Counted from the first letter of the stretch, positions 20,093 through 24,330 are shown. The stretch: 64,000 nt of DNA from a virus (IMGVR_UViG_3300046777_001606:1-64000); one strand, 5' to 3'. A program made the numbers and translations. Notes: generated from the sequence alone by a model not told the origin.

Positions 20093-20136
20093 GTGGCACA
20101 AGGGGGGTTGCGACTCCCCTTTTTTCGTGCAATACT
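20077..20136 (+). promoter_or_regulatory. early promoter cassette copy 9 with hairpin/T-run
   Basis: TGTGACGGTT-GAGT-AAGTGGCACA; TTGCGA-17-AATACT. Confidence 0.8.
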
Positions 20137-20142
20137 AACAGT

Positions 20143-21039
20143 ATGAAAAACACACACCTCGAACACCCCGAAGATTCCATCCTGACGGGAGATCTTTCGT
20201 GCCTTGATTGGTTCACTGCTCCTGGTAAGTTGAGCGTTAAGGTAGACGGAGCTCCTGCAATTGTGTGGGGTATTGATCCTGCATGTGGCGAATTCTTCGT
20301 GGGCACTAAAGCAGTGTTCAACAAGAAAAAGATTCGTATTGCTCACAATCACGATGAGATTGATCAATTCTATCAAGGTGAAGTCGCAAACATTCTTCAC
20401 GCTTGTTTTGATTGGTTGCCTCGTTTCGAATGTATCTATCAAGGTGATTTTATTGGGTTTGGTGGTACTGATGAGTATACCCCTAATACGATCACTTATA
20501 AATTTCCTGAGGTAGTTTCTCAGAAAATTATCATCGCTCCTCATACTTGCTATTATGCAAAGAGCGATCTTCGTGATGCTGAAGCGTTCCCTGATCGTAG
20601 CATCTGGACTGATACTGAGACGGTGAAGTTCGTGCAACCTGATGCATACATCCTCTACAATCAGGAGTCCTTCGCTGATGTGAAAGAGGTTGTAGATTTC
20701 GCTCGTCAAATGTCTACTGCCTGTGAGTTCGTTTCTGATAAAGAAGCGGCAAAGATCAAACAGCAGATTAACGCTTGCATTCGTGCTGGTGAGCAGATCA
20801 AAGTGGAGGACTTTGATTGTGATGCTAACCTGATTCGTTTGTGGGCGCTTGTGAAGTCGATCAAAGATGATTGTCTGTTCCTGTGCCGTAACTACGGTCC
20901 TGCTGCTTACATCGGATACAACCGAATTGATGCTGAGGGTTATGTTCTCTCCAATGAGTTTGGTATGTTCAAACTGGTGAATCGTGAGGTCTTTGCTTAT
21001 CATAACTTCAACAGCGGGAGGTTCAACGTTGCAGCGTAG
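20143..21039 (+). CDS. ligase-like nucleotidyltransferase (MKNTHLEH type of T4-like phages)
   Basis: KVDG (motif I), YQGDF (III), EGYVL (IV), FKLV (V) of the ATP-dependent ligase/capping superfamily. Confidence 0.6.
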   Translation: MKNTHLEHPEDSILTGDLSCLDWFTAPGKLSVKVDGAPAIVWGIDPACGEFFVGTKAVFNKKKIRIAHNHDEIDQFYQGEVANILHACFDWLPRFECIYQGDFIGFGGTDEYTPNTITYKFPEVVSQKIIIAPHTCYYAKSDLRDAEAFPDRSIWTDTETVKFVQPDAYILYNQESFADVKEVVDFARQMSTACEFVSDKEAAKIKQQINACIRAGEQIKVEDFDCDANLIRLWALVKSIKDDCLFLCRNYGPAAYIGYNRIDAEGYVLSNEFGMFKLVNREVFAYHNFNSGRFNVAA

Positions 21040-21068
21040 GAGTTAGGTATACTCAGGTCGGCTGCCCA

Positions 21069-21127
21069 TGTGCCAGTCGCTGAACTGTCCACACCCCCTT
21101 GACTTTCGTTTCAATCCGCGCCATACT
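21069..21127 (+). promoter_or_regulatory. early promoter cassette copy 10
   Basis: TGTGCCAGTC-GCTG-AACTGTCCAC; TTGACT-17-CATACT. Confidence 0.85.
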
Positions 21128-21155
21128 ACGTTTGTTCAATCAATTTGTCGATCAA

Positions 21156-21908
21156 ATGACTTACAAAACTGACGGTTCTGTTCACCATGGTGGTGTGAAG
21201 AATGAGGACCTCACGGTTCGTATTCTGAATGAGAAAAAGATTTACTCTCACCCTGTAGAGAAGCGTGGTGGCACTAAAGTGAAAGAAGATGCCGTCGCTG
21301 GTTATCAACGTATCAGCATCAAGCGCAAGGAAGGTATCACTAACGGTTCCTTCGATTGGTTCAACACCAGCAGCTACAATGATGTGCTGGGTGATACTTT
21401 TACCCACTTTCTTTCTAACATGAAAGAGTTGCGGCAGATGCCTCAATCGCTGCGCTCTGATGAAGATTTTGTCCTGAAGATTCGGGATAGTTTCAATGCT
21501 CTCTGTGAGTTGGCGTTGGATAGTCTTACCTCCGATCAGGTTGTTGAGATCCTGAAGCGTGGTCTGATTGATGCTAACTCTGGTTTTGATGTTGTGATCA
21601 ACGACACCAAGACTTCGGAGATTTATGTGTTCTCTGCGGACCAACATCCTGCTCACGATTACATCGCCAAGGGTTACACTGCTATTCTCAAAGGCAATGG
21701 TAAATCGTCCCGTATGATCTACTTTGTAGATGCTGCTGGGAATGTGTATGATTGTGGTCTGCGTTTGCGGGTGACCAGCAACAACGGCATCAACGCTTTC
21801 CTGGGCACCAGTAAAGCAAACTCCAACAGTCAAGTTGTCATCAAACTGCAGCAGGATAAAGTGAAGCAACTCCTGCAGCAGATCGGCACCGAGGCGACCA
21901 GTTACTGA
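21156..21908 (+). CDS. PD-(D/E)xK restriction-endonuclease-like protein
   Basis: GVKNE...GGTKVKED...ISIK catalytic-like pattern; ATG 21156 downstream of promoter. Confidence 0.55.
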   Translation: MTYKTDGSVHHGGVKNEDLTVRILNEKKIYSHPVEKRGGTKVKEDAVAGYQRISIKRKEGITNGSFDWFNTSSYNDVLGDTFTHFLSNMKELRQMPQSLRSDEDFVLKIRDSFNALCELALDSLTSDQVVEILKRGLIDANSGFDVVINDTKTSEIYVFSADQHPAHDYIAKGYTAILKGNGKSSRMIYFVDAAGNVYDCGLRLRVTSNNGINAFLGTSKANSNSQVVIKLQQDKVKQLLQQIGTEATSY

Positions 21909-21954
21909 ACTGGCACACAGGGGGGCGACACTGCCCCCTCCGACCCCTTATACT
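21894..21954 (+). promoter_or_regulatory. early promoter cassette copy 11
   Basis: GCGACCAGTT-ACTG-AACTGGCACA; G/C hairpin; TATACT at 21949. Confidence 0.85.
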
Positions 21955-21976
21955 GACATCAGTTCAAAGGAACCCC

Positions 21977-22228
21977 ATGAAAGTCCAGCAAGTCGGCAGC
22001 AACCAAACCGAGGTGACCCTGGCTGACGGGACCTGCGTCCTGTTCTCCTATCAGACTCCCGTTGCCGCGATCGTCCCTGGCAAAGGATGGATGCGGACCG
22101 CTTACAAGTGGAGCGCCACCACCACCAAGCATGTCAACGCTTGGATCCGTAAGAATCGCGGCTCCTATGTGATCGATGAGGTCGCCAGTGTGCCACAGTG
22201 GGATCTGGACCAACTGGTGGCATTCTGA
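21977..22228 (+). CDS. conserved phage early protein (FSYQTPVAA...SATTTKHVN type)
   Basis: ORF track, downstream of promoter. Confidence 0.8.
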   Translation: MKVQQVGSNQTEVTLADGTCVLFSYQTPVAAIVPGKGWMRTAYKWSATTTKHVNAWIRKNRGSYVIDEVASVPQWDLDQLVAF

Positions 22229-22247
22229 CCTCCTGACCCTTTACAAT
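22189..22247 (+). promoter_or_regulatory. early promoter cassette copy 12 (degenerate)
   Basis: TGTGCCACAG-TGGG-ATCTGGACCA; TACAAT at 22242 (39-bp spacing kept). Confidence 0.6.
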
Positions 22248-22268
22248 ACTCTCAGTTCAATCGACACC

Positions 22269-22517
22269 ATGCTGAACTTCCTCCTGGATCACCTGCCCGT
22301 CTTCCTTAACGTAGACTGCCAGGGCAGCTCCGCTTGTGATGCCATCATCCTGTCGCCCCTGACCCGTACCGCGATCGTTAAGTGGCAGTCGGGCAGTGTG
22401 AGCGGGCATCCCTGCCGCCGCCGTGACATGCTGCCCCTGCTGTTCAACCGCGACCTGAGCCGTGGACAGTGGGCAAACCGCACCCTCCTGCAGGATCATC
22501 GGACGGTGACCCTGTAA
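22269..22517 (+). CDS. hypothetical early protein
   Basis: ATG 22269 within ORF 22176..22517. Confidence 0.7.
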   Translation: MLNFLLDHLPVFLNVDCQGSSACDAIILSPLTRTAIVKWQSGSVSGHPCRRRDMLPLLFNRDLSRGQWANRTLLQDHRTVTL

Positions 22518-22520
22518 AAT
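22462..22520 (+). promoter_or_regulatory. early promoter cassette copy 13 (degenerate)
   Basis: GTGGACAGTG-GGCA-AACCGCACCC; TAAAAT at 22515. Confidence 0.65.
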
Positions 22521-22544
22521 TATTCCATACCAAACGAACCGACC

Positions 22545-22721
22545 ATGACCTACGCTCAGATCACTGCCTCCGAACTCTCTGCCTCTGAGGCACGTTGTGC
22601 CATCTTTGACCTGGCAGACGACTTCTCCTGGGAGACCGTCGCCCGTGAGATGATCGCCCGCATGAGTGGCGATGAGGCACGGGAGTTTGTGGACGACTTC
22701 ATCCGCCTCTATGCCGATTGA
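22545..22721 (+). CDS. hypothetical early protein (58 aa)
   Basis: Hand translation MTYAQITASELSASEARCAIFDLADDFSWETVAREM...RLYAD*. Confidence 0.7.
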   Translation: MTYAQITASELSASEARCAIFDLADDFSWETVAREMIARMSGDEAREFVDDFIRLYAD

Positions 22722-22769
22722 GGCACTGGCACAAGGGGGGCTCTGACCCCCCACCCCTGGCTCTATACT
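22710..22769 (+). promoter_or_regulatory. early promoter cassette copy 14
   Basis: TATGCCGATT-GAGG-CACTGGCACA; G6/C6 hairpin; TATACT at 22764. Confidence 0.8.
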
Positions 22770-22793
22770 GATCTCAGTTCAAACAACGAACCC

Positions 22794-22970
22794 ATGCGCT
22801 ACAACCCCGCCACCGACCGCGCCATCTCCATCGATGAGATCGCTGAGCAGTGCCGCCGCGCTATTATGAAAGCCCACACCCCTGTGGAGGCTGCTATCGC
22901 TGCCCAACCGATCTACGATGAGGTTCTGACCTTCTCCCGTTGGGAGGATGATATGCTGGTGGCTGCCTGA
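22794..22970 (+). CDS. hypothetical early protein (58 aa), ends -LVAA
   Basis: Hand translation MRYNPATDRAISIDEIAEQCRRAIMKA...WEDDMLVAA*. Confidence 0.7.
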   Translation: MRYNPATDRAISIDEIAEQCRRAIMKAHTPVEAAIAAQPIYDEVLTFSRWEDDMLVAA

Positions 22971-23143
22971 TGCTCGCCATTCAACCCGCCAGCTGGGGCA
23001 ACCTTGACGAATGGGGTTGCCTCTGGGCTGAGACGATGGAGGAAGCCAAACGCGCTGCCCAATCCCTCCGCGAACCTGCTATGATATGGAAGGTTGGCGC
23101 CGCTGCTGCCTTCCCCCTGACCCTTCACCTTCCGATCCGATGA
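22970..23143 (+). CDS. hypothetical early protein (57 aa)
   Basis: Hand translation MLAIQPASWGNLDEWGCLWAETMEEAKRAA...; TGATG overlap. Confidence 0.55.
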   Translation: MLAIQPASWGNLDEWGCLWAETMEEAKRAAQSLREPAMIWKVGAAAAFPLTLHLPIR

Positions 23144-23280
23144 TCCGCTACGAAGTCCGTTACCAGGTCCCCTACAATGCCTGTGAGTGGCGCTCGCAAT
23201 GGTTCCCCACCTTGGCTGAAGCCGAGCGCATGATTGCCTTCTATCGCAGCTGTGGGTCGCCTGCTCACTTGGCTGCCTGA
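23140..23280 (+). CDS. hypothetical early protein (46 aa), ends -HLAA
   Basis: MIRYEVRYQVPYNACEWRSQWF...SPAHLAA; ATGA overlap. Confidence 0.7.
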   Translation: MIRYEVRYQVPYNACEWRSQWFPTLAEAERMIAFYRSCGSPAHLAA

Positions 23281-23342
23281 TACAATGGGAACGGGTGCGC
23301 CCTTAAAGACGCCCACCAAACCACACTGATACAAACGAACTC

Positions 23343-23486
23343 ATGACCAGCAACCTTGCCGTTTCCCTGCTCCGCCGTGGGCGCAATGGGGATGAGATCC
23401 TGCAGATCCTGGAGACGATCGCCAACGATGAGGCAGACGCAAACATCGCTGATGCCGCTGCCCACTTCGAAGCGATCCAATTCTGA
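23343..23486 (+). CDS. hypothetical early protein (47 aa)
   Basis: Hand translation MTSNLAVSLLRRGRNGDEILQILETI...EAIQF*. Confidence 0.65.
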   Translation: MTSNLAVSLLRRGRNGDEILQILETIANDEADANIADAAAHFEAIQF

Positions 23487-23532
23487 ATCTGACCACTGCC
23501 CCCCACGGTTCGCCGCTGGGGGGTCTTATACT
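23473..23532 (+). promoter_or_regulatory. early promoter cassette copy 15
   Basis: CGATCCAATT-CTGA-ATCTGACCAC; C6/G6 hairpin; TATACT at 23527. Confidence 0.7.
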
Positions 23533-23555
23533 ATGGGGACACAAGCAAACGACCC

Positions 23556-23723
23556 ATGACCCGCTACGACGTGATCTGCCCCTCCGCTCCCTGGGAGAAC
23601 ACCACCACCGATGAGGACCGTGCCTGGGACCTCTGCTACTCCCTGTCCGAGGAGTACGGTTACGCCCAGGTCCGCCACAATGAGACGGGCATCATCATCG
23701 GGGAGTACACCAACGGGCAGTGA
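23556..23723 (+). CDS. hypothetical early protein (55 aa)
   Basis: Hand translation MTRYDVICPSAPWENTTTDEDRAWDLCYSLSEEYGYAQVR... Confidence 0.7.
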   Translation: MTRYDVICPSAPWENTTTDEDRAWDLCYSLSEEYGYAQVRHNETGIIIGEYTNGQ

Positions 23724-23769
23724 GCCCCCCCGATCCGTGCTACAATTCTCTCAGTTCACCACCCGACCG

Positions 23770-23946
23770 ATGCGCCTCTCCCCCGCTACCCGCCTCACCG
23801 ATCGCCAGATGATCTGGGTGGCATACCGCAACGACGGCACCAACTTCAACCGCCTGACCCCTCCCTGGGGGACGACTGCTAGCATGTGGGCGGCACAGTT
23901 CGCTGAGCTCCATGCCGATGATGTGAAGGAGCCCACCTTCGGGTGA
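23770..23946 (+). CDS. hypothetical early protein (58 aa)
   Basis: ATG 23770 after TGCTACAAT extended -10. Confidence 0.65.
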   Translation: MRLSPATRLTDRQMIWVAYRNDGTNFNRLTPPWGTTASMWAAQFAELHADDVKEPTFG

Positions 23947-24005
23947 CCCTTCACCTGCTACAATATTCTCAACCACATCGCCCCGTGTCGATCACGGGTC
24001 ACCCC

Positions 24006-24215
24006 ATGTCCCCCATCCGCATCAAAGACGCTCGCCGCCAGCTGGACCGTTTGGATCTTGTCTGCCGTGAGGGCGGCAAGCATCGGGTTTACACCTGCCC
24101 CCGTCGCCCTGAGTTGCGCCTGACCCTACCCCATCGCGGCTCAGGTTCGCGTCCTACCCTGTCGATCGGCATGACCCACACCTTCCATAAGTTTGTGGAG
24201 GCAGTCGCTGCCTGA
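24006..24215 (+). CDS. HicA-like mRNA interferase (orphan), ends -AVAA
   Basis: IKDARRQL...EGGKHRVY.CP...LTLPHRG...LSIG matches HicA pattern G(S/K)H..Y.HP...VP.H...L..G; own TGCTACAAT -10. Confidence 0.6.
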   Translation: MSPIRIKDARRQLDRLDLVCREGGKHRVYTCPRRPELRLTLPHRGSGSRPTLSIGMTHTFHKFVEAVAA

Positions 24216-24330
24216 TTCGTTCGTGACCCTCTGAGGGCACAGAGGGCAGTTAATCCGCCGCGCCCCCCGTAAGGGCGGCGGGCCGTGTCGATCCCCGATA
24301 TATAAATCGCTAACTACCCTAACCTACAGA
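24216..24330 (+). other. GC-rich hairpin element at the early/late junction (terminator or ncRNA candidate)
   Basis: CCCTCTG-6-CAGAGGG and CCGCCG..CCC-GTAA-GGG-CGGCGG hairpins, then TATATAAA. Confidence 0.45.

Follow-up and report, generated by a model that had tools for sequence, protein, structure and literature searches.

Do the early proteins of a cyanophage carry genetically encoded degradation tags? The question is raised by a viral DNA stretch of 64,000 nucleotides (IMGVR_UViG_3300046777_001606:1-64000; "the window" refers to this whole stretch), in which four genes between positions 20,143 and 24,215 end in (V/L)AA followed by a stop codon. The original prediction read these ends as ssrA-like degrons of early proteins. 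The tags that the tmRNA (transfer-messenger RNA) of cyanobacteria adds end in VAA or IAA. ClpXP is the main reader of the LAA end of ssrA tags (PMC9382460). The source contig is a viral record of 107.8 kilobases (kb) with an estimated completeness of 53%, and the best explanation of the stretch in question is that it represents the hyperplastic early-gene region of an uncultured T4-like cyanomyovirus, in which a DUF6267 gene is followed by an island of tiny genes with a GC content of about 60%. The answer that we hold to be probable, if not by much, is a composite one: the tail of a single gene, g6, would be a selected ssrA-type terminus, and the other three tails would be lineage-specific, that of g8 having arisen by cassette recombination. 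The island and the four genes concerned are as follows (aa, amino acids):

21900..24300, plus strand: GC island, ~60% GC, ten small genes, most of them promoter-led; the rest of the contig is mostly 30-45% GC (composition profiles)
20143..21039, plus strand: g1, DUF6267 protein, 298 aa, ends NVAA (GTT GCA GCG TAG)
22794..22970, plus strand: g6, 58 aa, an MRYNP N-module and an RWE[DN]DxL[IV]AA C-module, ends LVAA; the one family with a conserved ssrA-like tail
23140..23280, plus strand: g8, 46 aa, ends HLAA; most relatives end HLAP
24006..24215, plus strand: g12, 69 aa, HicA-like (phrog_18430 'toxin'), ends AVAA; 24006 is the likely true start

A local cluster of Ala-Ala termini

The four tails are present at the positions originally given for them, and each has Ala-Ala at the free C-terminus with a nonpolar residue at -3. 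An independent parse of 20143-24215 likewise gave 12 genes. When both strands of the entire 107.8 kb contig are considered, 826 open reading frames (ORFs) have 30 aa or more, and of these precisely the four in question end in Ala-Ala, which bears out the earlier statement that no late gene ends this way. Under a null model in which the terminal residues are drawn from each protein's own composition, and which is hence matched for Ala, 0.21 such ends are expected in the 12 genes as against the four observed (P(>=4) = 2.7e-5), and the probability that any dipeptide at all is common to at least four of the 12 ends is 4.5e-5 under the same null. Hence the Ala content of these proteins fails to explain the cluster.

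To place the cluster in a wider context we used 80 related loci from IMG/VR (L001-L080), obtained by a search with the 58-aa g6 protein. The ORFs of all loci were grouped by community clustering, and families were kept if their substitutions fall mainly on third codon positions, as a test for coding. The family-weighted frequencies were:

14 island families: Ala content 12%, Ala-Ala ends 17%, internal Ala-Ala dipeptide 1.4%
Island families without g6: Ala-Ala ends 11.5%
45 non-island families of the same loci: Ala-Ala ends 0.5%, all from DUF6267

Given the value for the 45 non-island families, the enrichment is a property of the island and not of early genes generally. Thus, of the proposed enrichment over an Ala-matched null, the local non-randomness stands and the extension to early genes at large does not.

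The free terminus of g6

The expectation that homologues would conserve the tail is borne out for g6 and not for the other three families, whose relatives end mostly in LAP (g8), in RDA among others (g12) or in CAS (g1). Of 120 database homologues of g6, 109 end in Ala-Ala, mostly as LIAA or LVAA. In the 98 members of canonical length Ala occupies -1 in 96 and -2 in 93, Ile or Val occupies -3 in all 98, and the tail is preceded by a near-invariant R-W-E-[DN]-D-x-L. The same end is found in members that are longer at the C-terminus: 11 of the 12 variants with six additional residues (a Pro-containing insert) and all three with nine additional residues end in Ala-Ala, as do 15 of 20 longer forms overall (2-9 extra C-terminal residues), so that three classes of longer ends keep the dipeptide at the physical terminus. 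It is also retained where the sequence downstream differs, in at least eight contexts, some of which include a promoter or terminator and some of which do not. In a profile search of 1.8 billion representatives (50%-identity), eight of the nine proteins carrying the g6 C-module end in [IV]AA; the MRYNP N-module was recovered at the head of many small proteins whose C-terminal halves are unrelated and in no case end in Ala-Ala. As Ala-Ala is conserved in the homologues and kept at the physical end of the longer variants, it appears from these alignments that the free terminus of the C-module is itself under selection, and the tail is on this ground a credible candidate for one of ssrA type.

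The N-module deserves mention in its own right: MRYNPxTDRAxSIDEIAAQC (window 22794-22880) constitutes a portable N-terminal module that is found on dozens of small metagenomic proteins.

In common with tmRNA (ssrA) tags and with natural ClpX substrates that have an ssrA-like C-terminus, g6 proteins carry a nonpolar residue and then Ala-Ala at their free carboxyl end, behind acidic residues; the LAA end that is read by ClpXP has this pattern (PMC9382460). It differs from ssrA tags in that the tail is encoded in the gene rather than added by trans-translation, sits on a 58-aa phage protein and is known here from sequence. We read the tail as ssrA-type as it fits the rule for ends read by ClpX and as phage-encoded ssrA-like tags are established in mycobacteriophages. 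We accordingly favor a scheme in which g6 would present a selected, position-independent C-terminal [IVC]-Ala-Ala-COOH behind the acidic RWE[DN]D patch, by which an AAA+ unfoldase of the host, ClpX foremost, may engage the protein in its pore. Such docking would either limit the lifetime of g6 itself or allow an abundant early protein to compete with the ssrA-tagged substrates of the host. That ClpXP in particular reads the tail is a tentative proposal, realistic but somewhat short of probable.

Searches of Pfam, the PDB and the Atlas gave zero matches, structural relatives or neighbors, respectively, for g6, and tblastn gave no match in cultured phages. A search of genome contigs returned one phage-like contig of a metagenome-assembled genome and two spurious matches inside an oxidoreductase gene, with no host copy. 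None of tmRNA, ClpP, SspB and NblA is encoded on the 107.8 kb contig.

The tails of g8, g12 and g1

The Ala-Ala-stop of g8 lies in a 10-nucleotide (nt) repeat that is shared with the ends of g6 and g12, and the block between g6 and g9 contains one further gene:

22962..22971, plus strand: GCTGCCTGAT, copy 1, end of g6
23272..23281, plus strand: GCTGCCTGAT, copy 2, end of g8
24207..24216, plus strand: GCTGCCTGAT, copy 3, end of g12
22970..23143, plus strand: g7, 57 aa, phrog_6036

This 10-mer, which reads Ala-Ala-stop-T (GCT GCC TGA T), occurs on the plus strand of the 107.8 kb only at these three gene ends. In related loci where g9 directly follows g6, the junction consists of GCT GCC TGA and then immediately the TACAAT box of g9; in the window that junction follows g8. 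Furthermore, in three of these loci (L058, L044 and L030) the 200 nt that follow g6 match those that follow g8 of the window at 85-90% identity, and those that follow g6 of the window at only ~50%. This implies that the g7-g8 block (22971-23281) was inserted at the g6/g9 junction, with a copy of the 10-mer at either end. For the inserted g7, neither the 80 related loci nor IMG/VR contain a relative. Translation of g8 probably starts at 23140, where it is ATGA-coupled to the preceding gene. In its family HLAP is the commonest end, many relatives have a longer tail, and LAA is found in seven of 83 clusters. The Ala-Ala-stop of g8 is most simply viewed, from these alignments, as a copy of that of g6. 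We also found in the database a chimera in which the N-terminal half of g8 is joined to the C-terminal half of g6. The last codon is GCC at 50-73% of the junctions before three common intergenic modules as against 17% elsewhere, a difference confounded by gene family. The g8 tail would thus most probably derive from recombination at a cassette boundary, the last codons travelling with the intergenic promoter or terminator modules.

The tail of g12 varies extensively within its family. Its members end mostly in RDA and otherwise in SAA, SVA, RAA, RNA or VRS, with Ala-Ala in four of 12, and among three close relatives two end in VGS and one in AVAA with a TAA stop. The assignment of g12 as a toxin comes from a PHROG match (E=4e-6); there was no Pfam match at E up to 0.1 and no PDB relative, and no HicB-like neighbor was seen, the partner search not being systematic. 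As a separate observation, the 3' end of g12 is a hotspot of change among relatives, appearing as VGS, AVAA, AVEAVRS or RDA. The idea that the g12 tail is a 10-nt patch copied from g6 was dropped, since closer relatives display same-length VGS and AVAA alternatives that differ by ordinary substitutions.

The g1 protein is a clear member of DUF6267 (PF19782, E=5e-78, 263 bits against a cut-off of 27). Its homologues are found in 469 phage records, nearly all of them cyanomyoviruses, the best being that of the freshwater Synechococcus phage S-SRM01 (67.5% identity). In the clade of g1 (51 sequences) the tail is CAS in 26, VAA in nine and CAA in four, Ala-Ala accounting for 13 of the 51. In cultured cyanophages the DUF6267 tails that follow the conserved core are unrelated ones, namely NKK, GRV, FQR and EKV. 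Near residue 33 g1 has a K-V-D-G motif resembling motif I of nucleotidyl-transferase ligases.

On this evidence, the g8, g12 and g1 tails would be recent, lineage-specific alleles of variable C-termini, without a function common to their families. An early-protein degron code as originally envisaged is thus reduced to one family of four with a conserved ssrA-like terminus, the other three being lineage-specific. The accompanying codon argument fares little better: one tail does use GTT GCA GCG, and protein-level selection is only weakly indicated by this difference because the other three tails are identical at the DNA level (GCT GCC TGA T).

Competing explanations

Several observations weigh against the composite answer. 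The link between the g6 tail and a protease is one that we infer from sequence. Since the whole RWE[DN]DxL[IV]AA module is conserved, the tail could be where a binding helix ends. Of 42 distinct g6 gene ends, 41 have GCC as the last Ala codon, as against 52% of internal Ala codons; with GCC near-exclusive at this position synonymous variation cannot prove protein-level selection, and the bias leaves room for a nucleotide-level constraint on the end of g6. At least six further island families (g1, g5, g8, g12, f61 and f193) also have members that end in Ala-Ala, which could reflect weak recurrent selection rather than hitch-hiking. Finally, recombination is firm only for g8, the comparison of g12 with its closer relatives revealing ordinary substitutions instead.

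The alternative that survives best, though we consider it doubtful, is that the g6 tail is not a degradation signal but serves to dock some other partner, from the host or the phage, or is simply the hydrophobic terminus of a binding helix. The last 10 residues of g6 are indeed conserved as a unit, and an AlphaFold2 model of low confidence (mean pLDDT, the predicted local distance difference test score, 68) shows a helical hairpin, with one helix drawn through residues 31-57. The tail is the least confident part of this model, with a value of 56 in the last block. Moreover, neighboring families keep C-terminal motifs that are not ssrA-like (QLVAF and IQF), and conserved termini therefore seem to be a general habit of island proteins. 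However, [IC]AA is still the end of variants in which a Pro-containing insertion separates the last three residues from the helix; this speaks for the free terminus, and not a helix, as the element recognized. It would also have to be a coincidence that the tail matches the ssrA rule (nonpolar, Ala, Ala-COOH) exactly.

It is considerably less probable that selection made ssrA-like degrons of all four tails, and of the near-matches as well, to time or target a set of early takeover proteins. Four Ala-Ala ends within 4 kb are highly non-random, and their recurrence in several island families and in different relatives is what would be expected if gaining such a tail were often advantageous. Nevertheless, three of the four families have no conserved tail, and their commonest forms break the ssrA rule through a terminal Pro, an Asp at -2 or a Ser at -1. 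The number of Ala-Ala-tailed genes per locus is zero in two loci, one in 42, two in 26, three in nine and four in two, the window being one of the last two; the modal number is thus one, and in most relatives the g6 tail is the only one of this kind. Small genes of early type outside the island lack Ala-Ala tails, and of the three tails within the island, identical at the DNA level, one lies at an insertion boundary.

No more credible is a nucleotide signal that would explain everything including g6, with GC[CT] GCC TGA as the left edge of a module or a favored termination context and Ala-Ala as its by-product. The threefold occurrence of the 10-mer, the GCC bias at the end of g6, the association of GCC before TGA with common downstream modules and the prevalence of TGA among the stops of island genes (94%) are all in line with such a signal. 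It is contradicted by the persistence of the g6 Ala-Ala before at least eight unrelated downstream sequences, by the equal use of GCT and GCC for the penultimate Ala of g6 and by the GCA GCG TAG of g1 tails, and the association of GCC with modules is subject to the confounding by gene family noted above. Chance or composition, by which an Ala- and GC-rich island would yield meaningless Ala-Ala ends, is scarcely credible: the island proteins do have 12% Ala as against 5% elsewhere and three of the four tails are unconserved, but the Ala-matched null gives P ~3e-5, the g6 tail is conserved through indels, and antisense ORFs of the same DNA seldom end in Ala-Ala (9 of 4694, versus 135 of 4576 sense ORFs across all loci).

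The island and its remaining genes

The segment from 21.9 to 24.3 kb is the sole stretch of such GC content in the 107.8 kb contig (composition profiles), and its ten genes encode proteins of 46-83 aa each. An island of 56-65% GC is found in all 80 related loci at the equivalent site, flanked by the DUF6267 gene on one side and on the other by the gene whose start in the window is 24751; the order of the genes within it is mosaic among the loci and its position is constant. Its presence at the same place in 80/80 loci rules out a recent import or an assembly artefact, and identifies the island as a conserved trait of an uncultured clade. The island is absent from the cyanophage S-SRM01. Two island genes have homologues, at 48% GC, in S-CREM1, and none of 30 annotated neighbors there has an Ala-Ala tail. 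The restriction of host-like GC to one block of a 35% GC phage is a feature that lends itself readily to study. To judge from the architecture, the island genes are presumably expressed early. The remaining genes of the 20143-24215 segment are:

21156..21908, plus strand: g2, 250 aa, no family match, ends TSY
21977..22228, plus strand: g3, 83 aa, phrog_5643, ends QLVAF
22269..22517, plus strand: g4, 82 aa, phrog_7365
22545..22721, plus strand: g5, 58 aa, ends LYAD; some relatives end DYAA
23343..23486, plus strand: g9, 47 aa, ends AIQF after an acidic linker
23556..23723, plus strand: g10, 55 aa; homologue in S-CREM1
23770..23946, plus strand: g11, 58 aa

Two of these belong to families with conserved termini of other kinds. 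The g3 family ends in WDLDQLVAF (LVAF) in 29 of 30 members, and such a QLxxF end resembles the motif that binds the beta-clamp. LVAF (22228) had been listed together with ALAV (13507) as a near-match to the degron; both ends are present, and LVAF is more likely another C-terminal motif. In the g9 family [EP]-I-Q-F forms the extreme C-terminus and is preceded by acidic linkers that differ in length, and the homologue in S-CREM1 (L088 8618-8776) ends in QEIDF. This arrangement recalls the acidic tail and terminal Phe of the bacterial single-stranded-DNA-binding protein (SSB). One might speculate that the island is a toolkit of tiny early proteins, each with a short C-terminal motif imitating the ligand of a host 'hub', and that cassettes are reshuffled together with their last codons, making C-terminal mimicry a modular take-over strategy; the candidates would be L[IV]AA of g6 for ClpX, the beta-clamp-like QLVAF of g3 and the SSB-tail-like acidic linker plus IQF of g9. 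We give this idea little credence.

Three units resembling promoter early stem-loop (PeSL) modules are present between or before the genes:

20095..20142, plus strand: G-rich stem-loop with a T-run and, shortly before the ATG of g1, a -10-like box; terminator-like hit at 20100-20121
21909..21976, plus strand: GGCACA, stem-loop, TATACT and CAGTTCA leader; promoter-like hit ending at 21954
22722..22793, plus strand: GGCACTGGCACA, stem-loop, TATACT and CTCAGTTCA leader (sequence)

They have a common layout of GGCAC(TGGCAC)A, a stem-loop of a G-run and a C-run, TATACT or AATACT, and a leader of the CAGTTCA type. As the ATG of g1 follows the -10-like box by only ~7 nt, its mRNA may be leaderless. 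Most island genes have a -10 box of the TAYAMT type 20-60 nt before the ATG, the genes outside these units having the -10 box only. Sigma-70-type hits in the window are only modestly above those in shuffled sequences, and the extended -10 box pattern shows no significant enrichment there.

PeSL modules mediate indels in the hyperplastic regions of T4-type phages (PMC2839356, PMC4122927). The present array is similar in having units of a stem-loop and an early-type promoter between small genes, at which the indels and reshuffling of close relatives are located (PMC2839356, PMC4122927). It differs in forming a 60% GC island in a cyanophage, and in that the module edge overlaps the last codons, so that it can hand Ala-Ala-stop to a neighboring gene. 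The composite answer accordingly pictures tiny genes with their own -10 boxes, some preceded by a terminator stem-loop, that would be reshuffled between relatives.

Relationship to known tags and implications

Mycobacteriophages already provide examples of phage proteins with a genetically encoded ssrA-like tag: Int and Rep carry it at the C-terminus and their proteolysis sets the course of infection, according to the account in PMC9635641 (citing Broussard et al. 2013). The g6 family resembles this integration-dependent immunity, as outlined there, in that a phage protein has an encoded ssrA-like C-terminal tag. The differences are considerable: the mycobacteriophages of that account are temperate and integration cuts the tag off the repressor (PMC9635641), whereas the window belongs to a T4-like lytic cyanomyovirus, g6 is neither Int nor Rep, and the region has no integrase and no sign of tag removal.

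Should ClpXP indeed read the g6 tail, g6 would be the first early protein of a lytic cyanophage known to have a built-in ssrA-type tag. As either a timer or a decoy, it would then offer a way into the timing of take-over proteins by cyanomyoviruses or into their competition for the quality-control protease of the host. The negative part of the result is equally important: cassette recombination in a hyperplastic region can yield a striking local cluster of look-alike termini, by way of intergenic modules that carry the last codons of genes along with them.

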